Positions 24,425 to 59,820 are shown, counted from the first letter of the whole stretch. The stretch is 60,280 bases of DNA, filler included, from Jimgerdemannia flammicorona (GCA_003990765.1; 2 parts of 2 records of this genome joined end to end with filler, not necessarily neighbours in it); one strand, 5' to 3'. Notes: generated from the sequence alone by a model not told the origin. A program made the numbers and translations.

Positions 24425-27400
24425 ACTGGTGTAAACTGAGACTTATGCTATCTTAAGATGCTTAGGTTGCGAGGAAACTAATTTGCGCAACTGCATGAAT
24501 GTCCGCGGCTCGGCCACTTTGCCGAAGTTTGAACTACGTTCATAACTATATAATGGTTGGCGTTGTCTGCAACAACGCCAACACGATCAGTTTTGACAAT
24601 AAATAATCAAAGTGCTTAAAATCAGAGAAATCGAAAGAGCACCTGTCCGACATTGCTTTTGGAATCGGGAAAAAAGATGCGTTAGGAAAAATGCCGGTGC
24701 GCCAGTCCCTTCAATCCTCTTTTTTTTTTTTTTTATGCGGTTTGCGAACCTTTCGCGAATTGTGCCGATACTGGCGTGGTTACATGGTCACTGTTGCGAG
24801 CTTGCATCTGCTGTTTCACGGCGGTGAATATCGAGCGGCCTCGTCCGGTTGCTAATTGCTTATGTACTGCATCCTGTCCGCGTGATGGCTGATTACGAAG
24901 TCCACTGGCATGGCTGTGGACACGCAACGTGTTCGTGCAAGTGTCGCGGTATCTGTGTGCTGGTGATGCTGTTACATACGATGCGGGCGCGGCGCCTGGA
25001 ATACACTGACGATTGCGTATGGCACAAAACCATGATCGCGGGATGTTTGACACCTCTCAAGTTGGATGCTCATGCAAGTCTGAGTACGATCCACTCGACT
25101 TAGAGTCAAAATCTGCAAGACGATCCACTGTGTAACACTCGCCTGAGTAACGACATCATTCGGAATAAACGTAGAATTCTACGAGAGCTGTCGAAGTTCG
25201 CCATACCTACTATTCGGAACCTCGAGGCCACGTGATCTCCGGCCCAATTGATAGTGAGCCAAAATAATTTTTGCTCGACGCTGACACCTGTCTTAGACAA
25301 ATGGACAACTGGCCACAACATATCCACGCCCTACAACTCAAAATCGAATGTTCAGAACAAATGTTTTGCATTTATTGTAAGTAGGATAAACCACTAATAC
25401 TAGTGCTAGCTCGGATACGTGCAGATCGACTACATCATATTTCATTCCAATTCCATTACTGGATGCTTTTTACAGGTCCCGTCTCCTCCTTGGCCTACAG
25501 TAAACATCTATTAACGCCGGAAAATGTACTGCCTTTCGCCGTCTCTTATAAATTCTAATTTTAACAAAAGACACGTCAAACTAACCCAAATTGATAGAAA
25601 TGGTTTCTCAGTGACAGGGGTTGTGACTGGGAACAGCGGTGACAGGGTCCACGAAAAACCGTATACCACTTCATATAGTATCGATCAGCTTTGTATACCA
25701 TGACCCGCATTCATCATGAGACCATAAAATCAAACGCACTTCGACGACGACGACAGCGTTTTATGTGTATATTACATTTGTCGGATATTCCCTTCCAGCA
25801 TGCAGCGACTACTTTTGAGATGTTCCGGCAATATACTAAGGTATGATTGTTGAGTTCGACTCACCAAACAAGAGTACATGGCCATCACAACAATCGCCAC
25901 ATTTTGGGGTTGTAAATAGTTTATCTAAATTTGCGTTCTGCTCCTTTGCAAAAATTTTTGCGCAAAAATTTAGCACAACTGAATTGATATACCTCGAAAT
26001 TGACCTCAAAAGAATAGACATATACTAGCTTTAAAATTCACGAAAACTGACATCGTTTTCACTCGTAAAAATTTTATGTCATTTCGTGGCAATAAATTTT
26101 TGAACCCCTTTACCGAACCTTATTTTCTGATAGGTTCATCATGTGACCTGTTCACCTCTATATTGGGACATGGAAACAAACAATGGAAACGAGAACTGTT
26201 CCGAACCTCCTGCCGGATCCGACACTATCCGATGCACAGTGACCACATTTCCTGAATGGATCGTTCTGTTAAAGAAAGCGATGCCTGATAAGCGTTTATT
26301 TTGGAATCCGAAAATTTTAGCGAAGCCAGAAAACAACAATCACCTTTGAACCGTAGTTTGCATGATGATTGTGAATAGTTAAGACTGGGCGCCGGAGTTG
26401 TTACAAACTAGTACATCGACGTGTTAAATATATTAAATACTTCGTACATCTCTTGGCTACCATTCCATTTAAATCCTGTTTTTGCTAATCTTTCTGTTTT
26501 GATATCGTATATAGTAAAAATGAAATATGAAACAAGTGTTTGAAATACGGAGTCGTCTGCCTTGTGTTGCAGCTTCTCCATGTTCCGATTACTTCGCGCA
26601 ATACGTGGAACGGCGTTGATGGCTCGTATTATATATGTATCTTATTGTCGATTTCGGTAATGTATTACTAGTGGGTTAATTAGTATTATCGTCTGGGCCG
26701 CGCATTGCTACAAAAAAGATCCAATGGTGAAATCATGCATCCAAAGCAATATTCGTGCACAAAATCATATTATAAATTTTTCCACATCCGCTATTGGAAA
26801 AAATTTACCTTAGTTCCTTGTAAGATTTGTTGATGCATGAAACCTGCCGTATCGTCATTTGATATATACAGGCTACTGTAGGTTTTCATTTCGAAATCAT
26901 TATCTTTCAAAATGGAGAATCGGATTTGAATATGGTATTGCCGTGAGCACTCTCCTGTTAAAGGTATGACCATTTCGAGATTTCAAAAACGAAGCGTTCA
27001 TCCGGTGAATTGGTTGCCCCATAGGGTACGGAACAAAAGGCAAGGGCGCATTGGAGCTGTGTATCGTCGCACAAATCGTCAATGTTAAGGCCGACGGCGA
27101 CCTTCTCGATGACGTCAATCGAAAATACCATCCCTATGTCGGGGACGATGTAGTCGTCCGTAACCACCAGGATGGTCAAATTATGCAATGTTTTTGGACA
27201 ATTCTACGTTCATCATGAATGGCATACAATCAATTTAGCGGTATCGGCTCGATACGTAACCGAGCTAACCATTTGATAGTCAGGAGGTTGGGCAATACAA
27301 CTGGGACTGTTTTGGAATGGGTGACTAAGGCATCCTCATTCACAAGCATCCGTGACTGTATTTTTAGATCCTAACGGCCTTGACCCGAACAGTCCACTCC

Positions 27401-28218
27401 GAAATAATAGAAGAGTTCCAAGAAGACCAAATTCAGTGATGATCTAAAAAAGAAACCAGCTGCTCACAATCGCTCCCTGTTGCCAATAGAAGGTAACTAA
27501 TTATCTTTAAGTAATGCCATGACAGCACTTTGGTATAATTTTTCTGATCCCTGCGCTACAACTATTACAGACCGTTTATTGAGTCGTTCAAAATATCCTC
27601 GAACCGATTGTTTAGCCCGACTCACCATAGATCATCATTGCATGATGACCCCTCCGAATTTATATGCTGAAAACAAATCTAACTTTATAATAGATAATTC
27701 AGTTTCTAAATTTTTAATATAGTAGAGTTCTTCTCCTTAGCGGAAAACTAGTAAGCACAACCATATAGACAAACGGTTTAACTCCCGAAATTTATATTTC
27801 TTATACTCACGTTTGTTGTGGTTTTTTTTTTTTTTTTATTATTTTTTTTTTTTAAAATAAATATTTGTAGCATTAAGTAAGTTGAATCACCTTTTTATAT
27901 TTTCTTTAAAATAGGAACTTGGACGCTTATTTTCGGACAGATATAGCACATGACTGATTGAAAATATTTTATGGATATATTGGGACTTAATCTATGTTGA
28001 TGAAAACGAAACCTGAGCGGTATCTTTTTTTGGATCTGACAATTTCGGGTGCAAGAAGAAAACATACACCTTATGCACCATGACTTATTTTTGATGCCAA
28101 AGAAAGCGATGCCTGATAGGTGTCTATTTTTGAATCCCACCAGAACAAAGCATAGCCATCTTCGCGCTCACTGGGCGTACGAGTCGTTAAAATCTACTAT
28201 ATCCATGTGTTAACTTCA

Positions 28219-28229
28219 TATATAAAAAC
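28219..28229 (+). promoter_or_regulatory. TATA-like box upstream of the DUF6345-like gene
   Basis: TATATAAAAAC about 95 nt before ATG 28316; AATAAA follows the stop at ~30048. Confidence 0.4.
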
Positions 28230-28315: not shown

Positions 28316-29986
28316 ATGCTTGGCTTCCAAGTTCAACCCAAATTCCGGTTTCTGTTCATCGTGACCACCATCTTGATCACGGTGGGCATTGCCAATGGCA
28401 GCCCGACTCCGACCGAGGACGAAGACGTCTCAAACCCGCACCCATGCCACCCCGCAACGCTGCCTGTTTACAAGCTGTCACCAGGCCCCTGTGACGAAGG
28501 TCGAGCCGTAGACTTGGCTCAAAAATTGTACGGTGTCAAAAACTACATAACAAAGTGGCAAGATTCGAGTTTCGTCCTTAAAGGTTCCTGCGGACCTGGA
28601 TCCCAAGTCACCGTCGAGGTGGACAAGTTTAGCGGCGGTATCTGGTCCGCAGACCTGTCGCAGAATTGGAAACCTACTTTGTATCCCTCACTCCCGACGG
28701 ATGAAGAAGCCCGCAAGATTGCTGACGACGTGATTGCCAAGTACGGGCCCAATCTCGACTCCCAGGGACCGTTCAAGATTGGATTCGCCAGCATCGGTCA
28801 CACTACTTACGCCAGCAAAAGTGAAGGTTGCGACCGCGAAGATCGTAAGCTGGACACTCGAGTGAACTACGTGGTGACAGTTAACCATTCCGCCTATGGG
28901 GAGATCCCGATCGTGGGTGGCGGAGCAAAGTTCCAGGTCGGTCTGGGCGATAAAGGTCGTCTGATCTCATATTACGGCACCTGGCGAGTTGCCAACACCG
29001 ATGGCGACGAACACAAGGTTATTCCAAAGGAGGTTGCTGATGCTAAATGGTTGGAAAGCAATGGCGTCGGAAACATGACTTGGAAGTCCTATCTCGCCTA
29101 TTTTGCGGCACCTATAGGCTTGGAGCAGCAATTCCTCTACCCAGTGTATGTCTACGAATCCACCCAAATTGTTAACGGCAAAACAGTTCAAGTTCGTTCG
29201 ACGAGAGTTCCCGCCACCGACTTCTGCCCGGTCATCGTTAACATTGGGCCGCTAGAAGTGTACGAAAAGCCTCGGAAAAACGGAACGGTCCACAAAAAAT
29301 GTCGACACGGCGTCTGCGAAGATTGCATAAAGGAATGTGGAGTCGAATACCTCACCATGGCCCCAGGTTTGGCATCCCTCTCCAAAACCCAAGCAAATGC
29401 CGTAGGTTTTTTGAAGGCACTGGAGGCCGACGGCTGGAAGATTAACTTTAAATGGAGCAATCAAAACGTTTGGCGATCGGATTGGACTATCAATAATGAC
29501 GTCTGGGTCGACGGAGCGGACTTTGTTTTCTACACTGGCCACGCAGGCGGTGACGGCTGGTATTTGGGTGACGGCTCGCTTCTTGCCTACAACCAGATTG
29601 GCCCCAATGTGTACGGTGACACGGATCTCGAGTGGCTAGTCATCGCCGCCTGCGGCCCTTTCCAGGACGATATCATCGAGCCTGGCGAAGGTGACGCCTA
29701 TAGCCGTTGGAATCACGTCTTCAACGGACTGCATCTCATTCTCGGGTACGCAACTGTCTCAGACGACACAGATCTAGAGGGTACCATGCTCATCTCGAAC
29801 GCCCGCCAAGGTTATACACTCCTCGAATCCTGGTTTAAAACCGCAGCTGCAGCCCAGAATTCAGACGTTTATGCAGCCGCCATGTGGGTACACGATGCTT
29901 ACAACGATCATCTCAATGGTTATGGACCCATTTCCGAGGATGTCAAGAAACCCACTTCCTTCGGCTTGATGTGGGCCCCTTGCTGA
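28316..29986 (+). CDS. Secreted DUF6345-like protein with putative clan-CD (caspase/gingipain-like) His-Cys dyad, single exon, 556 aa
   Basis: Intact 556-codon ORF with a hydrophobic signal peptide (FLFIVTTILITVGIANG). C-terminal motifs WVDGADFVFYTGHAG and DLEWLVIAACGP, and FNGLHLILGY, are recognised from memory as DUF6345-type. Confidence 0.8.
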   Translation: MLGFQVQPKFRFLFIVTTILITVGIANGSPTPTEDEDVSNPHPCHPATLPVYKLSPGPCDEGRAVDLAQKLYGVKNYITKWQDSSFVLKGSCGPGSQVTVEVDKFSGGIWSADLSQNWKPTLYPSLPTDEEARKIADDVIAKYGPNLDSQGPFKIGFASIGHTTYASKSEGCDREDRKLDTRVNYVVTVNHSAYGEIPIVGGGAKFQVGLGDKGRLISYYGTWRVANTDGDEHKVIPKEVADAKWLESNGVGNMTWKSYLAYFAAPIGLEQQFLYPVYVYESTQIVNGKTVQVRSTRVPATDFCPVIVNIGPLEVYEKPRKNGTVHKKCRHGVCEDCIKECGVEYLTMAPGLASLSKTQANAVGFLKALEADGWKINFKWSNQNVWRSDWTINNDVWVDGADFVFYTGHAGGDGWYLGDGSLLAYNQIGPNVYGDTDLEWLVIAACGPFQDDIIEPGEGDAYSRWNHVFNGLHLILGYATVSDDTDLEGTMLISNARQGYTLLESWFKTAAAAQNSDVYAAAMWVHDAYNDHLNGYGPISEDVKKPTSFGLMWAPC

Positions 29987-30106
29987 GCTCGTGAAAGCGC
30001 GTGGAGTCAATGGCAATCGCCAAATTTGGACGCGCAAATATGTTATTAATAAAACATGAGTTTACGGTTATGTGCAAATGTATAATTTGATTAACTTTTT
30101 TTTTTT

Positions 30107-30206
30107 NNNNNNNNNNNNNNNNNNNNNNNNNNNNNNNNNNNNNNNNNNNNTTAATTAATTAANNNNNNNNNNNNNNNNNNNNNNNNNNNNNNNNNNNNNN
30201 NNNNNN
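30107..30206. other. Assembly gap with artificial linker TTAATTAATTAA
   Basis: Runs of N flank a 12-nt all-frame stop linker at 30151-30162. Confidence 0.97.
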
Positions 30207-33200
30207 CACCCGGACACGGCGAAAGCACTATTCAGCCTGGCTGACTTTTACTACAGTCAACACAGGTTTACCGATTCGGAGGCGTTGCATCAACGGGTTC
30301 TGGCGAACCGGGAGAAGGAGTACGGGCCTGAGCACCGAGAGACCGCGGTGTCACTGAACAGTCTAGCCATGCTTAATAAGAGGCAGGGCAAGTATAGCGA
30401 AGCCGAGGAACAGTACAAACGGGCGCTAGCAATTTGCGAGAAGGTATTAGGAAACGAACACCCGCAAATGGAAAGGACACTTAGCAATCTTGCCAACCTC
30501 TACGGCACTTTGAACAATTATAACGCGGCCGAGAAACTACAAAAACGGGCTATGGCGATCTCGGAGAAGGCATGGGGAATTGACCACCCGCATACTGCGA
30601 CGGCACTGAGCGGCTTGGCCGTGATTTATAAGAATCAGAGCAAGTACGATGAAGCGGAGATGCTGCAACAACGGGCGCTGGCAATTCGCAAGAAGATTTT
30701 GGGATTGGAGCACCCGGACACCGTGACGACTGTGAACGAACTGGCCCTGATCAAGCAGCTCGTCGAGACTAAGGATCTACAGATTCCTTTTCCAGTCAGC
30801 AGAAACCAGAGCGGACACGGTGCTCAGGCAGATACCGGGATGTCTCTCGAAAATCTGGCGGCAGCCGATACCAGGACGCCTCTCGAAAATCCGGCCGCAG
30901 CCGATACCAGGACGCCTCTCGAAAATCCGGCCGCAGCCGATACTGGGACATCTCTCGAAAATCCGGCCCCTGTCACTAGCACTCAGAGAGAGCACGGTGC
31001 CCAGGCAGATATCGGAACGACCCCAGCCAACATCGATGGGCACAGTGCTCAGGCGGATGTCGGGACGTCTCCAGAAAATTGGAACCGTGAGCTGCCAATC
31101 GCGAAAGAAAGCCGAGAATCAGACAACATGGATACCCTGACGTTTCAAGGAAATCGGGCCCCAGATAAGAACCAAGACCATTCGGGGAATATACCGAGAT
31201 CAGGCAACACAAATACCGAGGCATCGGCTGAAAAAGGTGGCCTGATTCTCCCCTACAACGTGGACGGCATGTTGAAATTGGAAGAGCTTGAGAGCAAGAC
31301 GGAGGTCGATGTTCAGAGTGCCACCAAAGGAGACGACCAAATTCTCCCGTACAACGTGGATGACGCGTTCGAACTGGAACAGGATGACACAATGGTGGCC
31401 AATACCGAGAGTACCACTGAAGGAGAAGGCCTGATTCACCCGTACTACGTGGATTATGTACTCCAAAAAGAAGAGCAGAAGAGCAACGAGGTCAATACCG
31501 AAAGTATTACCAAAGAAAAGGACCCGATTCTCTCGTATAATATGGACGGCATGATCGAATCGGAAGAGCTTGAGAACAAGACGGAGATCGATGCTCATAG
31601 TATCACCAAGGGAGACGACCCAATTCTCCCGTACAACGTGAATGACGCGTTCAACCTAGAAGAGGATGGCATAATGGAGGCAAATATCGAGAGTACCATT
31701 GAAGAAGAAGGCCCGTACTACGTGGATGGTGCACTCGAAGAAAAAGAGCAGAAGAGCAACGAAGGTAGCGCCGAAGGTATCACCGAAGAAGACCCGATTC
31801 TCCCGGACGAAGTGGACAAAGTGGACGAAGAGCTTGAGAGCAAGATGGAGGCCGATGTGCTCCCGTTCGTCGTGGGTGATACATTTGAAATGGAACAGGA
31901 AATCAAATTGGTGGATGCCGAGAGTGCCACTGAAGGACAAGGTCTGGTTTTCCCGCACAACGCGGAAGGTGTGCCCGAAATGGAGGCCAATAACGACATT
32001 ACCACCGTAGGAGAGAACCCGATTCTCCAGGACGACATGGGCAGAGCACATAAACTAAGTGTTGATACAAAAGAAGATGAATTCGAGTATGTATTTTTGA
32101 ATTTTGTATCAATTGTTCTTTTTCAAACATCGCTCCAATTCAAAATTTGTAATCTTCGGTCCCGCTCAGGAATGCCGAAACAGACTTCCACGACTGGCTG
32201 AATAAGCCGCTACCCGACAAGGAGAAAAAGGTCAAAAAGCTTGTGGAGATGCATCAGTTTGGCAATTGCATCAATAGCGTCGTTGAAAAGAAACAAATGA
32301 TCATGTTTATGCCAACCTATTTGCTAGATAAGTTCGGTTGGTACACGGACAAACTCGGCATCTGTTTGTACGTTCGTTGGCCATTAACTATAGACAAACT
32401 TCAATTGCTGAACGACATGATAAAGGAGAATAATACCATTACAATTTTCCATGGTGTCGAGCAACTCGTTGTCGTGGACGATACCACGGCTTCAGAAGGC
32501 GACAAGTCCTCGGATGACAACATCGACGAACCCTCGGATGGTACCAAAGACGAGGGCCAAAGCAATGACGAGAATCGCATGCCAATCAATCAGTCACAAA
32601 GATCTGAGAATGATCCAGCCGAATCATCACCCAAACACGAATCGAACGAAGGCGGGAGCCCTTTTTCCGGAGGTGGCGCGACTTCGGATCTTGGTAACCT
32701 TGGTGAAGGTTCTTCATTTCCGAGAATTGGAGCGGGAGTCGCGGGTCAGGCCTCAAACACCAGTGTCAACAATGGGGAAGGCGGAGATGATGTCGGGCTG
32801 TCAAGACCTGAGGAAATCGACTCTACCCAACCAATGAATGAGAATTGGAGACTATTGCGCTCCTTTTGCGAGTTCTTTTGCTGTTGTCCCAAGAATTCAC
32901 GACATGGACTTCATGTTCCATCGAGCGCGGGTGACAATCCGACCGCTCAATTCATCGAAACAATGAGAACCTCACTTCCGCCAATACTCTCGAACACCCC
33001 AAATGAAACTGTAATATTCTCGATTATGTCCCCCGATAGTTCAAACGAAAAAGCCGATGCTGCTGGGATACATGCTTCGACCGAGGAAAGTGATATACAT
33101 TCAAACAGTATGCAAAACATTATGAACCACAACACATCGAGCGCGGGTGACCAACCGATCGCTCAATACAACGAAAGAATGACAGCATCACTTACACCAA

Positions 33201-34288
33201 TACTCTCGAACACCCCAAATGAAACTGTAATATCCTCGATTACCTCCCCCGACAGCTCAAGCGAGAGAGCTGCTGATGCTGAGATATATGCTTTGACCGG
33301 GGAAAGTGGTACGCACTCAAACAGTATGCAAAACATTGTGAACCACAACAGGGATACCAATGCCTCACACTCAATCAATGCTAACGGATGTGTAAATCAC
33401 AACCCGAATTACACAAGTTAGTATGGCATACATGCAGCACTTTCCGCTTTGACATCATTCTCACCACATTTTTTTATTTTACCAGTTATCAATAATTGTC
33501 CCCAAGGTGCTTCCGTATCCGAAATGCCAAAGGCCCCAAAGTTTATTGTCACTGTCTGCACTGTGTCAACAGCGAAACTGGAAGACAGGGGGCAGGAGTT
33601 TACCATTGATTTTACCCTGAAGATCGCAACCACCAAATGGTCGCACAAGTTTGAATTGAGCAAGATCGCATTGAGTGGAGGCAAGCAACATTTGATTAAA
33701 AATAGGCGTTATTTCTTCAAGAATTTCCGCATCGAGATTGTTCCTTGCAACGATAGGATTAGCTGTACCGATGCGGAGCCAATTTCGAAGATAACGAACC
33801 ACTGGGATATCGCTCAAACTGGGGATAGCAGGGGAATCATATGGTGCCATCGCGTGGATCAACCTGTCATGAAGGCGAGAATTTTGAGACATCAGATCGA
33901 GACTCACATGGCGGAGTACAAGTGGGGATGTTTTAAAACGGAACCGACCGAATACTTCGTTAACTTGAAAGTTGGCTTCACCTTCGTGAAGAGTAATTTC
34001 AAGGATTTCAAGGATAGTTGTTGTCAAACAAATGGCGATGGCGATGACAATGACAATGACGACGATCTGGTAAACTCTGTCTCCGTACAAGTCAAGAACA
34101 TTCGAGAACATGTTGAAGTAAACGAAGTGCCCGAAGCACTCGAGTGCATTTGGGAAGTCGATGGGAAAGTCGAACTCGATGAGCATGGACCACATTTTAA
34201 GAATATTCATCTTAAAAAATGTAGTGATTGCTGTAATGTGAAGGCTCGTATTTGCAACGTTAAACAAGACCAAAACATGTTATCTTAA
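30207..34288 (+). CDS. 5'-incomplete TPR (NLR-type) protein with repeat tracts and fused C-terminal domains; exons <30207-32086, 32170-33416, 33486-34288 (>1309 aa)
   Basis: HPDTA..L..LA-type 42-aa TPRs are open from the gap edge. Introns GTATGT...CAG (32087-32169) and GTTAGT...CAG (33417-33485) join the three track ORFs in the correct phase. Confidence 0.82.
30825..30975 (+). repeat. Coding 36-bp tandem repeat (ADTRTPLENPAA)x4
   Basis: GCAGCCGATACCAGGACGCCTCTCGAAAATCCGGCC units with a 36-bp period. Confidence 0.9.
31240..32040 (+). repeat. Coding acidic ~31-aa repeat (ILPYNVD...ES.T.G..), ~9 units with ~94-aa higher-order period
   Basis: Visible in the translation and in the DNA. Confidence 0.85.
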
Positions 34289-35525: not shown

Positions 35526-38500
35526 TCAGCCCCCACTGAAGGATAGTCTGTCTCAGACTGTTCTTCAGTCATCATCCCAGTAAGCATAAGCTGCTTCTGC
35601 ATCTATGCCCATTCCATCATCTTCATTGTCTGTACCAGGATCACTCCATTCTAGCTCTGGATCTTCTTCTTGTTCTTTGGGAAACAGGATGTCCACTTGT
35701 CAAAGAATACTCTAAAAGGTGGTCTTGTTCATTTGATGAATATCATTGAGATAGAAGTGAGACTACACCAGGGCTCCAACATTTCAATTGTACAGGGTGT
35801 AGATTTGCTTGGCAGTTCTTGCTTCTCTGAGAGTAATTCCGGCTGGACTCCTTATGTAAGGTTGTTCTGTCAATAGCTGTCCAATATTGTAGAAGGCTTG
35901 TAGATGGTGGATCTGAAGTAATCTCTGGGCAATGGCAAGGTTCTCTTGATGCTTCTGGATCAATTGTATGGGGGTTCCTTCAAGTTGGTGAAACTGGGGT
36001 AGAGGAATTGGCAGGGCTTGGAAAGAGCTGAGGATGAGGGTCTGGAGGCATTGATCTATCCTCTAAGTCATGGTTTGTGCAAGTATATCTTGAGGTGATT
36101 GATGTGGACTAGAGTTCTCAAGACAAGTCCATCCATGCTTCTTATATAGATGCTGGTTCCTTTGATGTTGTATACAAGATATGGTCCTTCCCATTTTGGT
36201 TCCAGTTTAGTAGCAAAGTTTGTTTCTATCATGCTTCTCCAAACTAGGACTTGATCACCAATCTTGATCTTCTGATCCTTCTGTTTCAGGTCATAATACT
36301 TCTTTTGTCTTTCCTGGGCCTTGATAATCTGAATTCGGGCTTCATTTCACAGCTGATCTTCTTTTTCAAGAAGCTTTCCAAGGTTCTCATGGTCAGCAGT
36401 TCTGGTTTTCTTGGCAAACATCATTTTGAAGAGTTGATGCAGCAGGGGTATTCTGAATTTCCCATAGGATCTCAGGTAAGCAGAGGTCCCAATTGATAGA
36501 ATTAACTTGAGCAAGTCCTTTCTTGATGGTCTGGTTCATCCTTTCTGTCATGCCATTGGTCTGGGGGTGGTATGATGTGGTCTGTTTGAGATGTATCTTA
36601 TGAATTCGAACATAACTTATGATTATATTGTTGATGAATTCTGTACCTCAGTCAGAGATGAGTTCTTCTGGGGGTCTATATCTGAGTGTGAGTTCATGGA
36701 GAAGGCCTACAATAGTTAGGGCATCTGTGATTTCCATTGGAAAAGCCTCAGGCCACTTGGTCAGATATTCCACAAATACAAGGATGTATTTGTTTCTTCT
36801 TAGTGTAACTGGTAGAGGTCCAATTACATCTATTCCCCATCTCTGAAAGATATTGTCTGGTGGTACAATTAGTTGTAGTGGTGCTTGATAGTTCTTCCTT
36901 CCTTGGTACTTCTGGCAGATGTCACATTTCTGAATGATGTCTTGGACTTGTGCTCTGAGGTGGGGCCAATGTTGATATTGTTCTCAAATCTTGTCTTCTG
37001 TACTTATCTGTCCTTGGTGGGCTTTCTGATATTCTTTTCAGATGAGATCTTCTTGTGCCTTGATGGTCTGAGGAGCTTCCTTTAGGGTATAGTTCCTCAG
37101 GACACCCTTCTTCTGGTTCATTGGGGCTGGTGGGAAAGTACATCAACATTGTTGTGAGCTTTCCCTGCTTTGTGGATGATGGTAATTTGGTAATCCTGAA
37201 GGATAAGGATCTATTGGGCTAGAATTCTGGTGGGTTCCTTGCAGTTTAATAACCATTTGAGGGCTGCATGGTCTGTGATCAGGGTGAATCTTTTTCTGAT
37301 GAGATAATGCTTGAACAGGGTGACTGCCCATATGACTGCAAGATATTCCAGTTTAGTGCTACCATAGTTCATCTGCTGCTGATTGGTAGCTCTACTTGCA
37401 TAGGCTATTACATAGTGCTGTTGATTGGGTCCTTCTTGGGCTAGAACTGCTCCTAGGCCATCTTTGGAAGCATCTGTATATAGGATGAATGGCTTCTGTA
37501 GATTGGGGCATACAAGGATTAGTGCTGCAGTCATGTGGCTCTTGAGTTCTTTAAAGGCTTTTTCTTATAATTCTGTCTATTTGAATGATACTCCTTTCTT
37601 GAGAAGGATTCAGATTGGGGCAGCGATTTGGGCAAAGTCCTTGATAAATCTTCTGTAGTAGGATACTAGTATCAGGAATGATAGTGTTTCCTTTAAGGTC
37701 TTGGGTACTGGCCAATTATTGATCTTTTCAGTTTTCTTTGGGTCTGCATGAGTTCCTTCTTTCGAAACTATGAATCCAAGGAATTCAAGTTTCTGTTTCC
37801 CAAAGTAGCATTTCTTTGCATTCAGCCTCAAGTGGTTCTTGCAGGTGAGCTTGAAGAATTCCTCTAGGTGGTGCAGGTATTCTTCGAAATTTGCTGAATA
37901 GATATTGGAATCATCTATGTATACAATCAGGCAGTGGTGGATCAAGGGGTTGTAGACTGAATTCATCATCCTCTGAAAGATGGGGAGTGCATTGCAAAGT
38001 CCAAAGGGCATTCAGAGGTATTCAAATAGTTTTCCTAAAGCAAGGAAGGCTGTCTTTTGAATGTCTTTTGGGTCCATGGGGATTTCATGGAATCCTGTGA
38101 AGAGGTCCATACTGCTGAAGTATCTGGTATCTTATAACTGATCCAGAAGGTCATCAATTCTGGGCAAAGGATAGGCATCCTTTTCAGTGACAGAATTGAG
38201 TTTTCTATAGTCCATGCAGAGTCTCCATCCTCCTTTCTTTGGTACAATAAGTATAGGGCTAGCCCAAGGGCTGGTAGAGGGTTGGATGACTCCATTGACT
38301 AAGAGTTCTTGGATGTACTCCTTTTCAAATATTTTCAAGTGATGGGGTATTCTATAGGGTTTCTGCCAGATGGGTGTTGCATTTCTTGTATTTATACTGT
38401 GGTGATATGATGGATTGTATGGCAGGTTGCCATAATCAGTAGTGAAGATATCTTGATATTTGTTGAGAAGTTCTACTAGTTGTTGTTGTTGTTGAGGTGT

Positions 38501-38916
38501 CAATTCTTCTCCAATGTTGGTGGAAGGCTTCACTGTCTCCTGGGTCGCAGAGGGGCCTTTCCTTTCTTCTGAGACCTTTTGCCATTTCCCAATAGGTTTA
38601 GTTCATAAACTTCCCTATGGGTTTGGTTGAGAAAAGGCACCAGATGTCCTATGATGGTTCCTTTCAGCAAGATGATGGTCTCCTAACTTTGGTTGGTTGC
38701 TCAGGAGTGTACTGGATTCATCTTGTCAGGGAATGTGTATCCCTCTATGTCCAGGTGTGGGATATCTTCCTTGGGTTCAAAGAAAAGGTTTCTGGGGTCA
38801 GGTGGTGCAAAGATTTCGAAGGTAGCTTGTTCTCCAGGCTCCAGGATGAGATTCTTGTGCAGTCTGACTGGTTGCTGGTATACTTATTGAGGAGCATTCT
38901 TCTTGAGGTGGTTGAC

Positions 38917-39345
38917 TTAAAGGAGATATACTTCCTTCTTGTCTGAGCTTCCGAATCCTTTGGCTTGCCTTGTTCCTTCAGTCAGTTCAGATACTTCCTG
39001 TAATTGTGGGGTCCTGACCTTTATGAAGACTGCTTGGGCAATCTTCTGTCCTCTAATAATTCGGTGCCATTCTGCACTACTGTTGTGTAAGATAACCTTG
39101 ATTTCGCCTGTATATCCTGGGTCAATGGTTCCTCCTTCTATGGTTATTCCTTGTCTGGTAAGTCCAGACCTTGAGGTCAATTGGATGTAAGCTCCTTGGG
39201 ATGGCTGCATGGCTAATCCAGTTCTGATCATGAAGGTTTTTCCAGGCTTGATAAATTCATCCTCCAGACTGTGAAGATCATATCCTATATCCTCTGGGTG
39301 GGCTTTGGTTAGGGGTTTGGCCTTGGGATGTAGCAGGGCATACTG
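38917..39345 (-). pseudogene. dUTPase domain within gypsy pol
   Basis: Motifs DIGYDLHS, SRSGL, GTIDPGYTGEI, KIAQAV and RQAKGFGSS. Confidence 0.92.
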
Positions 39346-42300
39346 GGCAATGTTCTTGCTAAGTTCAGGCTTTCCTAAGGCTGAAGCTCCACTAGCAGAG
39401 AGCCTCCAAGCTCTGAGATTGAGGTGTGGCCATCTGGTTCCAGTAGAGGGATCTTAGAGATAATTGATTCCTCTTCTTCCTGTAGGGTCTAGGGCTTCCA
39501 TGAAGTTGGTAGCATCTTCTGCCCATCCTTGGCAGGTTGCATGTCTGATGAGAGCTAGGATATCTTCTCCCAAATCATAGATCTTGAGGATTCTTCTTCC
39601 TGGCTTCTTGGTTCAGCTTTTTTGAATCTGGCCTCTGTTGTCTCCTCTCTTTAAAGTATGGACTGCAACATCATGACTAAGGTGAATCTTCTGATGTCTA
39701 CAGTCTTGGCAGTCAGGGTGTCTTCCATGGTTGTAATATCCCATTGCTTGGAAATGATGTTTCTGGTTATTGATCTCTTATTGTCTTGGGAATTGGTACC
39801 CATCTTGGTCATAGGTGGGTGGAAGGCAAATGGTCTTCCACTCTCCCCAAGACAACTGCTATCAGTGCCATTTACTGGACCAACAGGAGAGACAGAGACC
39901 CCAGAGACCAGACCCCCTAAACACACTTGCACAGTCAACTACCTTTCAAGAAGTTACCACCAAGCTACAAAGCTGATTCAGGGGGCACGGCTTCTTCATG
40001 TGTGGACATCTTCCTAGCTGAAAAGCTTTCTCTTGGTGAGTTTCTTTCTTGGGGATAATGGTGATAGTACTGGGTCCTTCTTCTGTATTCCAAGGGTCAT
40101 TGTCTTTGGGTGGTGTCCAGCAAGGGTCATCCTAGGGAATGAGTTCAGAGACCTCTTCTTCTTCAGGTGCTTCTTGTTCAGGAACTTCTTGGTCAGAAGT
40201 TTCTTCTTCCTCAGATGATTCTTGACCCCAAATTTCTTGTACTTCTGCAGCTTCAGTTGCAGGTGTTTCTGGAACATGTCGGCATTTCTTCTTCTTCCTT
40301 CTGCACTCTGGGCAGGCTGTGCCAGGCGATTTCCTTGTTCCCATGATCTTGGAAGAGTGCTCAGGATACTTGTGTCTCTTGAGGCAGATAGGGCATCCTT
40401 TGGCTTCTCCTGCAATGGCTCTGATGGTGATGGGGATAGTGTTCTTAGCCCATACATTGTCTTCTGGTCTGTCATCCACCAGGTTAATTCGGGGATTGAG
40501 TCTGGGATCATTTCCATCTTCAGATTCTTCCTCTTCTTCTGTGGTAGATTCTTCACTACTGGCATATTCTTCCTGAATAGTGACCTTCTTCTTCTTCTTT
40601 GATTGCTCATAGCTGGTCACCTTAACTCTATACTTCTTGTCTCGGTAATCAAACTTGAGTACTTATTGACCAATATCAACAACTGCATTCATTTCCTTCA
40701 TCCAGTTGGTGCCAAGAATCATGTCATAGGTGACAGCTTTGGTGATAACAGCTTTGAGGATGGAGAACTGAATGTGTCCAAGGGAGATAGTGATATTTCG
40801 TACTTCTCCAAGGGGTTGAGTTCAGGCTCCATCTGTTACTATGATGCTGAGGTTGGATGGTCCATCAATGGGGCATTGGAGGGTGTCCAGGAACCATTTA
40901 GCAATGACACAGACAGCTGCTCCTGTGTCTATGAGGATCTTTGCCTTTTGTCCTCCAATATCTCCATATAGGTAGGTGCTGACATATCTTTCAGCTGCTT
41001 GAACAGAGATGGGAACTGGTTCTTGCTGTGGGATTGGGACTCGGCCAGTGCTAGACCTGGTGGTTCTCAGTAATTTGTTTTGAACTCCAGCTGGTGTCAG
41101 TTGCAGGAACTGCAGGAGGGGAACTTCCATCTTGGCCTCTTGGATCTTCTGCCAGGCTTCATTATAGATATCTCTGGGCATGGTCTTTGGGGAGTATTTT
41201 TTCTTGGACTTTGGGGCAACAGATTCCTATTCTTCTTGTTCCATTTCTTCATCTTCTGGTGGCAGCTCATTTGTTTCTGGGACAAAAGGTGAGGGGGTTT
41301 GGGGAGATGTTTCTACTTGTTCTTCTTCATGTTCTTCATCTTCCTCTTGGATGGTTCTTCTGCTGACATTTCTGAATGGCCTTCCTACAGGTCTCTTCCT
41401 TTTCTCTGCTGGGTAAACTGTTTTCTGGGTGGTAACCTTGGTAGGATACAAGTCTAGGTCACTGTAGTCTTTGCTGTTGCTTGCTTCCTTGAAATCTTCA
41501 ACAGGATGGGCTTCAGTCTTCTTGTACTGAGTATCATTCCTTTGGTTTGGTGGTTCTCAGTCCCTTTGGTCACTTCTTTTGTTATCACATTCAGTGGCAT
41601 AGTGTCTGTATTGTCTACAGTAAAAGCATTAGACTTGGGCTCTGTCTCAGACAGGGTACCTTCTTTCTTCTTGCTGGTAATTCCTGTTATCTCTTGGTGG
41701 ATAACCTTGGCTTCTCTGTAGTGGATATCCTCTGTTATCTTGGTAGCCCCAATTTTCACATGTGGTAAGTTTTTCAATCTGTGCAACCAACTGGTCCAAT
41801 TTGGAGCTGAGGTCTTGAATTTCACTTCTGTCCTTTATTCCTTCCTTGGCTGGCCTTCTTTCTTCAGATATTTCTTATCCTTGAAGCAGTCCTTGTAGGG
41901 CTTTGACCAGGATATCTTCTTTATCTTCTTTCTTGTCATGGTCACTCCAGGTAGTTCCTTGTCTGACATCAAAGAATCCTTGGGCTGCATCTACTTGCTC
42001 TTCAGACCTTCTGATGCCTAGGGTGCGGACATGCTGGGCAATTTTTGGAGGAATTCCATTCATGAAGGTCATTGGACCTATGATGTCCTGGTTGGTGGCA
42101 TTGAACCCAGCAGTATGCATTCTCTTCTGGATTCTTGTGAAAAAGGCTCTGGGTGACTCTCTAAGATTCATCTTCATCTCCATGATGGATTCTTGAGCCT
42201 TGTGGTGGGTTTCATTTCCTGCATACTTTTCAATGAGCCAGTGGACCATGGCCACATATTCTAGCTCATAAGATAGTGCTGCTTGTATCTGTCTTGCTAA

Positions 42301-43040
42301 TTCTGAATCTGGATTGTTTGCTGTTCAATGGAAAATTCCTCTGGCTGGTTCTCTGAGCTGAGCCTTGTAGATGGCAATTTTTCTTTCATCTGAGAGATTC
42401 CTCAGGGCTGTGATTCCTTCAATTCCATCAAGGAATTCTCTGGAGTCTTCCTCTAGATATCCTGCAAAGATTGGCAATGAGGTGGTCATTTTATTGTCAC
42501 TTTCTTCTGATTCTGGTTCAGGTTCAGATTTTGATTCTGATTCACTTTCTGAGCTATCACTAGAGATGGGGGTGCTTGGGTATCTTGAGGATAGTGTTCT
42601 GGACCTTAGACAAGGTGGAATAAGCCTAGGTATTCTTGTAGGAGCTACTTCTCACTCTGCAAGAGGTTGTGGTAAAGGTTCTATTGGGGAGATTGGTGGG
42701 ACTGATATGGGGTGTCTGGCTGTAAGATCTTGGGCTTGTGTAATAAGATCTTCTAGTTCTTGTACAAGTTCTTCAAAATCTCCAACAGGGCCACCTGTGT
42801 TGTCTAGTTGATCTGGTTGGGAATTTTGGGCTGTACTTCCTTCTGGTTGAGATCCTTCTGATGCTGGGTAGTTGGCAAGTCTTGATGTGATTACTTCTCT
42901 TCTTGTTCAAATGCTGGTGATGACTAGTTCTCTTGTAGTGGCAGAGATTAGTATTGTATCAAATGTATCCAGTTTGACTGTGAGTTCTTGTGAGCTGAAA
43001 AGTCACATCGATTTGAAATCTTCCCAGTTGAGCCCCCAAA

Positions 43041-44269
43041 TGTAATGTGCCAGCTTAAATGGAGGCAAATTACAAGGTTGGGGATTGATGTAGTTTGGCT
43101 TGAGCCCCCAGTTACTTTGTCAAAAAGCAACAAAATGTTCTAAGATTCCTGAGGTCCTTGGTGTTTAGTGGTATAATAGTCAAAGCTGGATTTCTGTAAG
43201 AAATTTCCTTATTGGGACGGTTCTCTGGGTGTAGCAGCGATTTGTGTGTAAATGGATTTCCTTCTTGGGTCAACTGGGAATGCCACAATTTTGTGTAGTG
43301 AGGCAATCTCCAAAAGTATGTGATTTCTGGGTGTGGCAGTCTTGTGTAGCACGACGATCTTGATGTGTGACGGTCTGGCAATTTGGTGGTTCTCCTTATG
43401 CGATTTCTGCGTGACGATCTTGGTACAATGATCTCTATGTAGCGCAACGATCTCCAAAAGTATACGATTTCTGGCAGTAGCTCGATTTGGCTTACTGGGA
43501 ATAAACGAATAACTCGAATGGCGTGGATTCAGCTTCAACTGGGAATATGGCAGATAACTTAAAAGCAGCGGATGATGCGGATTCGGCTTCAACTGGGAAT
43601 ACTACTCGGACGACGCGAGTTCTTCCGAATTGGGCTTTTCTGGGAATACGATGGCGCGGATTCTTCTGAATCAGCGGCTTCAACTGGGAAACGGCGGCGA
43701 AGTTCTTTCTTGAACCTAGGCGGCAAACTTCAGGCTTATCTGGCAAGCGAACCAAAACGTAGCAGACTTCTCTTGAAAACGGACTCGTTCTTTGTATCGG
43801 AAAGTGGACCGGAGTGGGAAAGGGGCAAAGCTCACAATCTCTTAGTAGTGGCTGTAGAGCAGGCGTTTCTCCTAAGTGTTGCAATCCAATTCCTTTAGGA
43901 TCAAGTGGCTTTTGGCAGGCGTATCTCTCGAAGTGTAGTAGGCAGACTTGTCTTTTGCTTTGTATTTCGGAACTGAGGTTTATTCACTCTTGTCTCTGGG
44001 GTATTTTATACATTGTGGTTGCTATCTTGGTTGCTATCTGGTTAACTATAGAATGCTATTTATGGGGTGACATTCACTGTCAGGGTGACAGCCACTGTTA
44101 GGGTGACAGTCACTGTCAGGGTGACAGCCACTGTCAGGGGTTTTCCTTTCTTTAGCTATCTGGGTTATTTATACATTTTCCGCAGTAATGGTTGCTGGTT
44201 ACTATGCTATGCTAATGTTCACGTCACCTGGTTGGGTTTCGAGATTGCTACGTTTTGTGGTTTGTCACA
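43041..44269 (-). repeat. 5' LTR of gypsy family B
   Basis: Near-identical to 34319-35525 with one extra ~22-bp repeat unit; adjacent to the PBS. Confidence 0.95.
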
Positions 44270-47639: not shown

Positions 47640-49690
47640 TATCCAAATACTGTTGATGATTCATTCTTTTGTAATATCTAAGATTGATACTATATTAAAT
47701 ATATTCAGTTTGACTTTTGAGTTCTTATAAGCTAAAAAGTTATATAGATTTTAAGAAAAATCTTCTCAGTTGAACTTCTAAATATAATATGCCTGGCTCA
47801 ATAAAGGTAAATTACAAGGTTGAGCAGCTATGTAGATTAGCTTGAGCTCCTAGTTACTTTATCTAAAAGTAACAAAATGTTTAATAATCTCTTATAGATA
47901 ATTTTGACAGTTTTTCAATTGAGTGCAGTTTTGTATAATAAGGCAAATTCAGCAGATTTCTTAAATAATACAGATTCTATATAATATGATAGATTACTAG
48001 ATGATGGTAATTTCTCAGACTTTATCTAATAAGCAGATCAAAATATAGTAGATTTTAAAGTTGGCAGACTTCTTTGATAAATAAAGTTATATCAGACAAC
48101 TGCTTTATTTATATAAATGAGTTTACTGCAGAAGTGCATCTGACTGACTGGTTTTAGTCAAAGTAGGGTAGACTTCTCTTTTTGGCAGACTTCTCTTTAG
48201 ACTTAATCTAATAAGTAGACTGAAAATATGACAAATTTCTCAAGTTCTTCTAGCTTGGTCTGGTAAGTATATTAAAAATTAGCAGACTTCTTTATATCAG
48301 AAAGAGACTAGAGTGAAAAAGAAAGCTCATTATATTTTAGCAGTAGCTCATTGATAGATATTCTTCTCTTAAGTATATCAGACAATTGACTTTTGCTTTT
48401 GGAACTTTTCAGACTAAGGTTTATTCACTCTTATTACTAAAGTATTTTATAGAGATATAGTTACTAGCTAGTTACTATGTGATTAATTATAAATTTACAG
48501 TAAGGCTAATTTAGAAAGGTATTCTCTCAGAGAACAGATATTCCTTCAGAATACAGATATACTCTCAGAGTATATGTATATTTTAATAGTATAGAATTTG
48601 TCCTAATTTAGTATATTAGACTATTTATATAATAATATATAAAATTAACTATAGAGATAACTATGTTGAATATTTTATATATTATCTAACTATACTATAA
48701 TATTTACTTATTATAATAGACTTGAGTTGCTTGATATATCTTAGCTTATTTCTTACTAGCTTAGTGATATATATTTTCTAGTTTAGATTACTTATAAAAA
48801 ATCTTCTTAAAAATCATTTAATTATTAATTCTTATTCATTTATAAATAGAGATAAATATAATATAATTATACTATCAGATAGTTATATTTTCTCAGAGAA
48901 GAGTAGTAGTAAATTAAACATAATTTCTCTTTTATCTATATAAGCTCAAAGTATTGGTTTAATTGAAAGATTGGATATTAGTAAATAGTTCTTCTTAATA
49001 ATTATCAAAAGTATCTAACTTAAGTAGCTTAAAACTAATTGATATAATTATTAAGTAAGTTACTATAGAGTATAGATATTTTATTTACTGATATTCTAGT
49101 TATGCTTATAGATTTTGAATCTAGTCTATTATACTATTCTGTATTTTTTTTCAGATTTATTATGATTTCTAGATCTATATCTTTAATGGTAATATAACTT
49201 AATTTGACTAGTTTATCTTTATTAACTATTTGAATATATTAATTTTAGTTTTATAAGAGAAAGTAGCTATATCTGAAGATTCTAGTAGGTTTAAAGTAGC
49301 TTGAAGAGATACTGAAGGTTTAAGTATTCTTGAAAAATTTCTAAGAAAAAATATTCTAAGCTTTATTTAAGTAGATGGAATATTTATACAAAATCTAAAA
49401 AAAAAAAAAAAAAAAAAAGGAATCCAGAAAGATCTAAAAAATGAAAAAAAAAAATACTGAGAGAGTACTAAGAGAAGGTCTTGACAAAAGATGACTAATT
49501 AAGTTCTACAATGTTCCAAAGGGCTCTATAACTAGCTAAGATATGATACTTAGTGTCAAAAAAAGACTAGAATGTTCTGGTATCAAGAGAGAATTTCTAA
49601 GCATTCAGAACATTGTGGAATATTCAAGAAACGACAAGAAAAGACTATTGAAAAGATGTGAAAATGAGCTATAACTAAAATTGTTACATA
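47640..49690 (-). mobile_element. Old, heavily mutated relative of gypsy family B (leader, PBS, LTR from 47783) plus further decayed LTR-element DNA
   Basis: 47640-48500 aligns to 42905-44060 (TATAATATGCCTGGCTCAA vs TGTAACGTGCCGGCTCAA) with pervasive C>T/G>A changes. The right boundary is approximate. Confidence 0.7.
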
Positions 49691-55121: not shown

Positions 55122-55730
55122 ATGATGCTCTACAAGCTGAAAGTGCTCGGAGCGGCTGGTTCGGGCAAGGAGGACCTGGCCCTCATAATGATGGCGAACA
55201 TCTTTGACGAATCCTACAATGCAAACACCGAGGATTCGTATCGAAGGCAAGTGGTCATCGACAAACGACCGTGCGTGGTGGAAGTTATGGACATAAGCGC
55301 CGCAGAGGAGTACACTGCTCCGAGTGACCAAGATATCAGGGACGGTGACGGATTTCTCATCCTGTATTCCGTCGCCGATCGCTCCACCTTCGAGCAGGTT
55401 GAACGTTACTATGAGTATATAATTCGCGTCAGAGACGAAACCGTCCCGGTGATGCTGGTCGGTAACAACTGTGATAGAGTGGCGGAGCGCGAAGTGGCGA
55501 GAGAGGAAGGGATTGACATGGCCCGCCGAATCGGAAGTGATTTCATCGAGGCCTCCTACAGGGGTCGCCTCAACGTTGAGAGGTCCCTCTACACCGTTGT
55601 GCGAAGGATTAGAAAACATCGGGATGGCGATAACAAAGACGGTAACAAAGGCAGTAACAAAGGCGGTAACAAAGGCGAGAAAATGACGAGTGCGCGCGGC
55701 GCCGGGTGCAAGATGTGCAATGTACAATAA
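55122..55730 (+). CDS. Divergent intronless Ras-family protein (fungal Ras2/Mucor Ras3-like) with degenerate G-boxes, 202 aa
   Basis: Reads MMLYKL..LG..G.GK, EDSYRRQVVID..PCV.EV.D, EEYTA..DQ.IRDGDGF, VPVMLVGN.CD, EREV.REEG, NVERS.YTVVR; ends CKMCNVQ. Confidence 0.9.
   Translation: MMLYKLKVLGAAGSGKEDLALIMMANIFDESYNANTEDSYRRQVVIDKRPCVVEVMDISAAEEYTAPSDQDIRDGDGFLILYSVADRSTFEQVERYYEYIIRVRDETVPVMLVGNNCDRVAEREVAREEGIDMARRIGSDFIEASYRGRLNVERSLYTVVRRIRKHRDGDNKDGNKGSNKGGNKGEKMTSARGAGCKMCNVQ

Positions 55731-58621: not shown

Positions 58622-58653
<32 letters not shown>
56844..58653 (+). mobile_element. 5'-truncated Tx1/L1-like LINE (RT C-half to poly(A)) with ~15-bp TSD
   Basis: GVPQGDPLSP, GAFADDMVV, CEDC...EHWLGEC and poly(A) at 58625-58653. 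TSD core GTTCTAAATCTA at 56830-56841 and 58655-58666. Confidence 0.92.
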
Positions 58654-58655
<2 letters not shown>

Positions 58656-59820
58656 TTCTAAATCTATATAAATATTCTCTATACTAAGTATATTATAACC
58701 TCAGCTCTACTTTTCCCTCTTAAGAATAAAGAAGTATTCTTATTCAGAACTCTCAGACCCAACTTATTAATAATTCTAAGTCTGATTAACTTGGAATATA
58801 AGTATGGTATCTCTGCTAGTATAAAGAATTTGAAAGCAATACCTGGACTATATCTCTATAATAGATAGAAGGAACTTGGCACTTTCTCACAGAACTCAGA
58901 ACTTAAGATCAATAGTTATCTCTGATTATCTACAATATATTAACTCTATTAGTATATAGGTTTATTACAATTTGGTAGTAACAGAAGGTTTTCTCACCTA
59001 TATGTGATCTTCCTCAAGAATCTACTATAAATATAATCAAATCTCATAAGAATTCATTACTAATACTAATAGTGATAATTATGAAATATCTTCACTCTGG
59101 CTACTCCTCATAACTAAGCTGAAGAAGTCAATAGAATTATCACCAAGTAGACTGAGATCTATATTAGCTAAGAGAAATTTGATAAACTCAATAATAAAAC
59201 CATATAAGAAGTATTTGATATATTTATAATATATACTTAATAAAGAAATTACTAATATCAAAGATAATAAAGAGAGTTTGAAATATTAATCAGTAGCTAT
59301 TTTCATGAAAAATATATATGAGAATCTATCAAAGCTATAAGTGAATATTTTCAAAATTTTCTCTTTAATAATTATTACTAAAAAGCCAAAGCTTTTCTAA
59401 ACTATAAGAGATATTATACCAATTAAAAAAAATATTACCTCTACTATCAAGTTCTCTATATATAAGTAAAGATAATTCAATAATAAGGATTGTAAGCTAT
59501 CAGATCTAGTGAAGTCCTTACTATATTATTCTGATCTAGAAGAATAATTAAAAAAATATTTGAACCTAATACTGGTGGCCTTAGTACTACTATAAATCCA
59601 CTACTGAGAATATTAAGCCTACTGAGAATTACTGTAAAAGATCTAGTAGTAACTCTATAAAGACTACTAAGCTATAGACTGATTATTAAATTCTCTCATC
59701 TCAATAATATTATAGAAGAAACAACTACATATTATACTACTTTTATAGTAATAGTATCTGAAGAAGGATTACTATTACTCTATTATTCAGATAATGAAGA
59801 TAACAAAATAATATCTATAG

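Follow-up and report, generated by a model that had tools for sequence, protein, structure and literature searches.

We analysed a 60,280-nucleotide stretch of DNA from the fungus Jimgerdemannia flammicorona (GCA_003990765.1; two parts of two records of this genome joined end to end with filler, hereafter the window), in which an intronless frame of 556 codons runs without interruption from 28316 to 29986 on the plus strand. This open reading frame (ORF) encodes KPRKNGTVHKKCRHGVCEDC at residues 318–337, together with FVFYTGHAG, which holds H409, and WLVIAACGP, which holds C446; an intronless gene with all of these motifs had been quoted in a preliminary description made from the sequence alone, and both were recovered here. 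In a Pfam scan the protein matched DUF6345 (PF19872) over residues 353–553 with 136.1 bits against a cut-off of 26.9 (E 1.7e-39), the sole family above cut-off, which is also the identity that the description had proposed. The features of the gene product, in which a domain predicted to adopt the caspase-hemoglobinase (clan CD) fold is preceded by a likely signal peptide, a putative inhibitory pro-domain and a basic linker, are as follows.

28316..29986, plus strand: the whole ORF, 556 amino acids, read as signal peptide, PepSY-like pro-domain, basic linker and DUF6345 clan CD domain
28316..28399, plus strand: likely signal peptide, residues 1–28, from hydropathy (basic n-region, hydrophobic core, putative cleavage after Ala-Asn-Gly)
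28448..29251, plus strand: N-terminal domain, residues 45–312, with a PepSY/YycI/YpeB-like fold by structural matches, a predicted inhibitory pro-domain that docks over the active site
29195..29197, plus strand: Arg294, near-invariant, on a strand of the predicted interface, candidate active-site plug (R in 119/119 ungapped rows and 103/126 distant rows)
29252..29332, plus strand: basic, poorly ordered linker, residues 313–339 (predicted local distance difference test, pLDDT, 57–72), likely cleavage region, with a lineage-specific Cys cluster
29333..29983, plus strand: DUF6345 domain, residues 340–556, clan CD fold by structural matches of the predicted model
29540..29542, plus strand: His409, predicted catalytic His, directly after strand 403–408 (120/120 close rows, 138/143 ungapped distant rows)
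29651..29653, plus strand: Cys446, predicted nucleophile, directly after strand 440–445 (116/120 close rows, 139/141 ungapped distant rows)
29765..29767, plus strand: Asp484, in loop L5, candidate S1 specificity residue (119/120 rows, 28/28 fungal-clade rows)

Predicted catalytic domain, pro-domain and linker

Conservation among close homologs was read from a 120-row alignment, and the AlphaFold2 model, built on 120 homologs, reached a pLDDT of 86 and a predicted template modelling score of 0.88; in it the leader is disordered and the linker, near residues 311–340, is soft. Clan CD entries dominate the top structural ranks for the catalytic domain of this model. The best match is that of residues 331–537 with the SAVED-CHAT protease 8tl0 (Z 14.0–14.3, root-mean-square deviation 3.1–3.2, ∼181 residues aligned), and matches were also obtained with the gingipain RgpB (4ief, Z 13.0), a metacaspase (6w8r, Z 12.6), Kgp (4rbm, Z 12.2) and legumain (Z 12.1–12.2); the ESM Atlas model was concordant, with CHAT clusters at template modelling (TM) scores of 0.63–0.68. 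A section of PMC4357240 places the catalytic His of clan CD after strand beta3 and the Cys after beta4, and the model strands after which H409 and C446 stand are the counterparts of beta3 and beta4 in the clan. The predicted model thus speaks for a clan CD fold with His and Cys at the clan positions, as had been suggested. The expected motifs fared less evenly: the conserved His and Cys do stand directly after strands, whereas the motif around the His is Gly-His-Ala, with Gly408 before it in 120/120 rows and Ala410, not Gly, after it in 118/120. The conserved Gly of clan CD is described in the same source as adjacent to the catalytic His.

Further invariant residues of the domain are D451, H473 and E488. 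Loop L5, which carries Asp484, is given as a specificity loop of clan CD in that section of PMC4357240, and because Asp484 maps by strand order to the position of the MALT1 specificity Glu and the caspase-7 Arg, it would favour a basic residue (Arg or Lys) at P1. Asn361 and Ala444 lie at positions that map, again by strand order, to alpha1 and L4, and they do not make up the C14 S1 signature (Arg/Gln/Arg or Asp/Asp). The dyad is lost in part or whole in nine rows. In P0122, a member of the fungal clade described below, the His is replaced by Leu and the Cys by Ser, and in P0043, P0051, P0059 and P0065, which are related but lie outside that clade, the Cys is replaced by Gly; all of these retain R294 and D484, and judged by their residues they are probably inactive.

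By sequence, the domain falls outside peptidase families C25 and C14 and outside CHAT. Peptidase_C25 gave a Pfam match below cut-off (13 bits against 23) over residues 391–428, which include His409, and CHAT (PF12770), Peptidase_C14, PepSY and FTP were all absent from the five families found at E up to 1. With hhalign, comparison with nine C25 domains was not significant (E 0.14, probability 0.4%) and aligned H409 and C446 with the C25 His and Cys, and comparison with 16 CHAT domains was also not significant (E 0.35) and out of register. Protein and profile searches against the sequences of the PDB gave no match at E up to 10. The catalytic domain folded alone without an alignment had a pLDDT of 34, and that model was not used.

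The N-terminal domain is strongly conserved among homologs, and its model, over residues 27–303, best matched 5coz (Z 12.5, root-mean-square deviation 4.3, 224 residues aligned), with further matches to YycI (2o3o, Z 11.1), YpeB (5boi, Z 10.9), YycH (Z 9.0) and two chains from metalloprotease entries, the fungalysin-type 4k90_B of an Aspergillus metalloproteinase (Z 8.8) and 3nqz_A (Z 7.3). We take all of these to be PepSY-type folds, and the last two to be propeptide chains. The matches of the domain in ESM Atlas were clusters without a name, apart from one of YycI at TM 0.59. When residues 45–312 and 335–556 were given to ESMFold2 as separate chains, the pair scored 0.92 against 0.02 for the best control, with at least 94% contact agreement between runs and a partner pLDDT of at least 88; the score mark used is passed by 51/78 solved complexes and 2/108 mismatched pairs, and among eukaryotes by 39/65 and 2/126. 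The predicted interface of ∼150 contacts takes in residues 351–357, 408–409, 445–447 and 481–485, that is, both residues of the dyad in one interface list together with the clan CD specificity loops L1 and L5. From the pro-domain side it includes residues 291–297, and there is a tight pairing of strand 549–555 with strand 162–168 in a shared beta-sheet. Arg294 lies in this interface and is a candidate plug by analogy with RgpB, whose pro-domain Arg enters the S1 pocket. Hence in the models the N-terminal domain is predicted to look and dock like a pro-domain over an active site, in line with the N-terminal pro-domain that had been postulated.

The secretion signal noticed earlier is likewise supported, and it is likely, from the leader sequence, that the protein is secreted: the best 10-residue Kyte-Doolittle mean of the leader is 2.95, and pLDDT is below 50 for residues 1–32. 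By the same crude hydropathy measure, hydrophobic leaders occur in 25/28 fungal-clade rows and in 22/100 others, which suggests that the fungal branch is characterised by secretion; leaders are shorter than 15 residues in 74/100 close homologs from outside the fungal clade. Linker sequences vary among homologs but stay basic, with a KR or RR pair in 93/100 non-fungal and 21/28 fungal-clade rows. Thus, of the basic, Cys-rich linker reported at the outset, the basic character is kept across homologs, whereas the cysteines belong to this lineage: C329, C334 and C337 are each present in ∼1% of the 120 rows, and linker Cys occurs in 0/100 non-fungal rows. A zinc finger or cysteine switch as a family feature of the linker was considered and rejected (zf-C3HC4 E 0.064, Cys not conserved). 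Because many leaderless prokaryotic homologs keep the basic linker, self-processing would be at least as likely as cleavage by Kex2.

Genomic setting, distribution and origin

Positions 1–30106 of the window are one contig (C454) of the 231-Mb assembly, which stops 120 nt past the stop codon of the DUF6345 gene, at an N gap. It is very improbable that bacterial DNA from an endosymbiont or contaminant was misjoined to a fungal contig here. The lack of introns and the position at the contig end beside the N gap would fit such a misjoin, but the same contig bears 21 kb of CpG-depleted repeat DNA (CpG observed/expected ∼0 across 3000–24000, typical of methylated repeat relics), from which a 1.8-kb piece recurs elsewhere, on other contigs, in 39 long copies of 72–81% identity (among 40 candidates scored), and the repeat end at 24450–24550 was found again on dozens of contigs. 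Moreover, the gene flank is AT-rich with long poly-A/T runs, the protein groups within a clade of fungal proteins, and a decayed paralog lies on a second contig (C8436, locus L203:1266-2706), where it adjoins CpG-free DNA. This paralog is 73% identical in DNA, carries frameshifts and stop codons, and keeps the His and Cys motifs, with two Cys in its linker. Its differences by codon position (0.26/0.18/0.29) suggest that it was once under selection; no third copy of the gene was found in the genome. The G+C content at third codon positions is 0.60 for the gene, 0.48–0.64 for five other ORFs of the window and 0.80 in the median for 79 prokaryotic homologs, and farther along the scaffold a Ras-like ORF has 33/33 of its matches in Mucoromycota-type genera. 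Because the contig bears host repeats and the genome holds the decayed paralog, contamination of the locus is unlikely, and the residence in a fungal genome assumed from the start is borne out.

Homologs were collected in several ways. An initial search found 211, and the 120 of these that were listed included nine named fungi and eight named bacteria; cluster look-ups and a fungal-profile search added six more fungi, giving 15 named species. The carriers are Paraglomus (two) and Ambispora in Glomeromycota, Discina (Maublancomyces) gigas and Morchella snyderi in Pezizomycetes, and ten lichen-forming Lecanoromycetes (Letrouitia, Loekoesia, two Squamulea, Flavoplaca, Gyalolechia, cf. Caloplaca, Gallowayella, Brigantiaea and Cladonia). 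No names of model yeasts, moulds or Mucorales were among the matches listed. Exhaustive searching with HMMER yielded 599 representatives (E up to 0.001). From GTDB genomes came 131 loci spread over many phyla; 80 of them were retained, and 78 were used in the first tree. The full-length two-domain layout, at ∼33–43% identity, is present in Actinomycetota, Acidobacteriota, Bacteroidota, Pseudomonadota, Cyanobacteriota and methanogens, and in 53 distant proteins scanned DUF6345 lies near the C-terminus, sometimes behind immunoglobulin (Ig), CARDB or CBM96 domains.

In three unrooted trees, of 308, 88 and 54 rows, this protein, all named fungi and a further set of sequences were separated from every named prokaryote, with branch supports of 99, 99 and 100/99, and 0/78 GTDB-derived proteins fell inside the fungal clade. 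The fungal clade is nested among prokaryotes, which agrees with the prokaryotic ancestry that had been proposed. The preliminary description had also pictured a stand-alone acquisition domesticated in this lineage, and this part does not hold, as the protein belongs to a fungal clade of several phyla (100/99). Broad vertical distribution in fungi had been named there as a finding that would tell against such an acquisition; the distribution is indeed deep, but it is very patchy. The fungal-clade genes P0020, P0072 and P0093 are uninterrupted ORFs on contigs of eukaryotic look, where coding density is low and the neighbours include a DEAH helicase in fragments, a GTPase of the Gtr1/RagA type and a BTB gene.

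For placement, this protein was put on each of 97 branches of a fixed 50-row backbone under LG+F+G4, with three near-duplicate rows dropped, and the best 40 of the 97 placements were reported. The best lies within the fungal clade, as sister to the Ascomycota group (p 0.997 in the approximately unbiased test, p-AU). Among those 40, prokaryotic placements were at least 48.9 log-likelihood (lnL) units worse, with p-AU at most 0.011, and the nearest few were not rejected by the Shimodaira–Hasegawa (SH) test (0.05–0.06); placement as sister to all other fungal rows had a p-AU of 0.001. The position of this protein within the fungal clade is likely but not certain. Within the Ascomycota part of the tree, Pezizomycetes split from Lecanoromycetes, matching the species tree, and copies from different fungal classes are 39–44% identical. 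Because the trees are unrooted, the direction of transfer, from prokaryote to fungus, rests on the far wider prokaryotic spread, and since the clade spans Glomeromycota, this Mucoromycota fungus, Pezizomycetes and Lecanoromycetes, the transfer was likely ancient. One ancient bacterium-to-fungus transfer followed by patchy retention and many losses is the simplest reading and a likely one. The copies of Paraglomus brasilianum and Ambispora gerdemannii are 92.8% identical and the two Paraglomus copies 86.3% (P0004, P0017, P0023); the closeness of the P. brasilianum and Ambispora copies could come from cross-contamination, mislabelling or recent transfer.

Gene surroundings compared over 148 loci, most of them prokaryotic, showed no conserved neighbour, the largest shared family being present in seven loci, as would be expected if the partner of the catalytic domain is fused to it; they point to no function. 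A family of ∼210-aa proteins lies beside the bacterial DUF6345 gene in 4/148 loci (L028:5665-6291, L038:3185-3808, L045:5654-6289 and L131:884-1540). One eukaryote-like contig carries, at a distance of ∼5 kb, both a DUF6345 gene of the fungal clade and a fragment that matches the Tc-toxin TcA_TcB_BD domain (L157:1-774, E 2e-30); a P450 and Gtr1 lie on the opposite side.

Two further features flank the gene in the window.

28219..28227, plus strand: TATA-like box (TATATAA), 97 nt upstream of the ATG, not beyond chance
30048..30053, plus strand: AATAAA, ∼60 nt past the stop codon, not beyond chance

Both had been offered as signals of domestication. They are present, but when bases were shuffled in 5000 trials, the 150 nt upstream contained TATAAA in 20% of them and the 120 nt downstream contained AATAAA in 8%, and because both are so frequent in shuffles they carry no weight as such evidence. 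Short blocks upstream of the gene recur between 25845–26310 and 27606–28137 at a spacing of 1.76–1.87 kb (best 39 nt at 90%), which suggests an old promoter-side duplication or repeated regulatory elements; no gene remnant was found between them. A 176-nt contig identical to 29642–29817 came, as a single instance, from one run of uncertain type, where a control stretch gave short pieces only, and it was not used as evidence of expression. Elsewhere in the window, CpG-poor blocks with an observed/expected ratio of ∼0 (3000–24000, 36000–43500, 48000–49500 and 57000–60000) alternate sharply with gene islands at ∼1. Right past the N gap, 30159–34288 on the plus strand is an ORF with TPR repeats and an acidic repetitive tail, whose frame is open back to the gap, and it is followed by two ORFs without a Pfam match. 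On the minus strand, 49846–52560 encodes an NB-ARC-TPR protein with a CaaX-like C-terminal motif, and 55122–55730 on the plus strand is a divergent Ras2-like gene.

Proposed mechanism and alternatives

We regard it as probable, with considerable room for doubt, that the gene encodes a secreted clan CD cysteine protease zymogen with a PepSY-like cap, derived from one ancient bacterium-to-fungus transfer and kept by scattered fungi. Judged from the models, the protein likely works like a gingipain-style zymogen. The signal peptide would lead it into the secretory pathway. The pro-domain would be held by the pairing of its strand 162–168 with the C-terminal strand 549–555, residues 289–297 would lie across the active-site loops, and Arg294 might be inserted into the active site, as is Arg126 of the RgpB pro-domain. 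The linker would then be cut after Arg or Lys, either autocatalytically or by a protease of the Kex2 type, the pro-domain would be lost or loosened, and the freed enzyme might act on proteins outside the cell, cutting after basic residues that Asp484 would anchor in S1.

Several observations weigh against this interpretation. The residue after His409 is Ala, where Gly is general in clan CD, and the linker of this very protein has no KR or RR pair, holding K318-P-R-K321, K327-K328 and R330 only. Because the two docked chains come from a single protein, a kind of pair that usually passes, the informative part of the docking is the location of its contacts. Covariation of R294 with D484 was tried as support for the plug and rejected, because its p of 0.02 over 122 distant rows was accompanied by far stronger signals at four other acidic positions, which points to general divergence. 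With regard to origin, placement with Glomeromycota had a p-AU of 0.02 and an SH value of 0.68, and the grouping with Ascomycota misfits a simple species tree for Mucoromycota. In the 88-row set, a constrained tree that grouped the other 27 fungal-clade rows and kept this protein out of the group gained 7 lnL units over the free quick tree (p-AU 0.61), so the exact place of the protein depends on the data set. The branch of the protein is long (∼1.0), and it has an atypical composition. In these unrooted trees, the row nearest to the fungal clade by path is an actinomycete, without support.

It is also conceivable that the gene entered fungi later and then spread from fungus to fungus, or was acquired separately from an unsampled bacterium, instead of being inherited from deep ancestors. 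We find this doubtful, if worth real attention. The distribution over 15 named species is very patchy, the Mucoromycota copy groups with Ascomycota and not with Glomeromycota, Paraglomus brasilianum and Ambispora share a closer pair of copies than two Paraglomus do, P0020, P0072 and P0093 are all uninterrupted ORFs, and the 88-row constrained tree weakens the placement of this protein; however, the split of Pezizomycetes from Lecanoromycetes follows the species tree, between-class identity is as low as 39–44%, and the prokaryotic placements among the best 40 of 97 were rejected by the approximately unbiased test.

The activity itself could differ from proteolysis. An enzyme that uses the same dyad as a transpeptidase, ligase or amidase, comparable to Gpi8 or legumain-type ligases, and that joins or remodels extracellular proteins, would accommodate the His-Ala in place of His-Gly and the extra invariant D451, H473 and E488, which suggest an unusual active site. 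Legumain-type ligases (5h0i and 6l4y, both Z 12.2) and the glycosylphosphatidylinositol (GPI) transamidase 7w72_K (Z 11.1) lie within ∼2–3 Z of the best protease matches, but the close structural neighbours are mostly hydrolases, and a pro-domain over the site followed by a basic linker resembles gingipain-type zymogens; hence we think such an activity unlikely. We also consider it quite unlikely that the N-terminal domain stays in place for good as a regulator or substrate adaptor and opens when a ligand or partner binds, in the way that YpeB and YycH/YycI, PepSY-like proteins that are not propeptides, restrain or tune the enzymes they partner. Its best matches (5coz, YycI and YpeB) rank above the peptidase propeptide chains, the predicted interface of ∼150 contacts with a shared beta-sheet is large, the domain is strongly conserved, and this copy has no dibasic site, whereas the long, low-confidence, sequence-unconserved linker that is basic in nearly all homologs is what a cleavage region would be expected to look like.

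The protease zymogen reading could be extended to an undescribed family of secreted, Arg-specific caspase-fold enzymes that entered fungi once from bacteria before the split of Mucoromycota and Dikarya, and that disappeared from most lineages and was kept mainly in fungi associated with plants or algae (arbuscular mycorrhizal, Endogonales, lichen-forming), where it would process partner or matrix proteins at the symbiotic interface. As a whole this is a long shot. That 13/15 named relatives are arbuscular mycorrhizal or lichen-forming marks the gene out as one that may have been transferred long ago and may act in symbiosis, but these are about four independent lineages and a sampling effect may be involved, so that we claim no more than a low-odds lead.

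Comparison with known systems

To our knowledge, the clan CD enzymes of fungi are intracellular (metacaspases, separase and CHAT domains) or reside in the endoplasmic reticulum (ER; Gpi8). A zymogen that is secreted would be of a new kind among them, with an unusual pairing of a metalloprotease-style PepSY propeptide with a caspase fold. DUF6345 would also gain a testable activity with named residues, H409 and C446 for catalysis, D484 for specificity and R294 for self-inhibition. In the open-access literature, DUF6345 was met in a table row of PMC10682907, for a 536-aa Tannerella forsythia vesicle protein labelled as outer membrane; in the open-licence literature, supplements not covered, nothing was found on a fungal DUF6345 branch, PF19872 or a new secreted clan CD family in fungi. 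What is probably new here is the secreted fungal branch of DUF6345 and its probable ancient bacterial origin.

The uncharacterised, mainly prokaryotic DUF6345 (PF19872) family shares the domain and its layout with the present protein, which differs in belonging to a eukaryotic branch with leaders in nearly all members. The RgpB zymogen of family C25 (4ief and 1cvr) matches the predictions made here in its clan CD fold (Z 12–13), in export and in a large N-terminal pro-domain over the active site, and for RgpB a section of PMC4357240 describes a pro-domain Arg that enters S1 and processing at Arg. Unlike RgpB, the present protein has a predicted PepSY-like pro-domain and lacks an Ig-like tail; at its alpha1 S1 site no Asp could be made out. 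CHAT proteases (SAVED-CHAT, 8tl0) and separase are the closest in structure of the catalytic domain, which here has no Pfam CHAT match. CHAT proteases are cytosolic and activated by sensor domains, and are not known to be secreted with a propeptide. Fungal metacaspases (C14B; Yca1, 4f6p) and Gpi8 (C13) have the same fold at Z 10.1–12.6 but are only 6–12% identical, and the S1 Asp pair of metacaspases appears, from strand positions, to be replaced here by Asn361 and Ala444. Metacaspases are cytosolic, and Gpi8 is a subunit of an ER complex. Finally, the predicted fold of the N-terminal domain is shared, at Z 7.3–12.5, with the FTP/PepSY propeptides of M4 and M36 peptidases (4k90_B and 3nqz_A), YpeB and YycH/YycI; it has no Pfam PepSY or FTP match, and in contrast with the M4 and M36 propeptides it is fused not to a zinc metalloprotease but to a domain predicted to be a cysteine protease.

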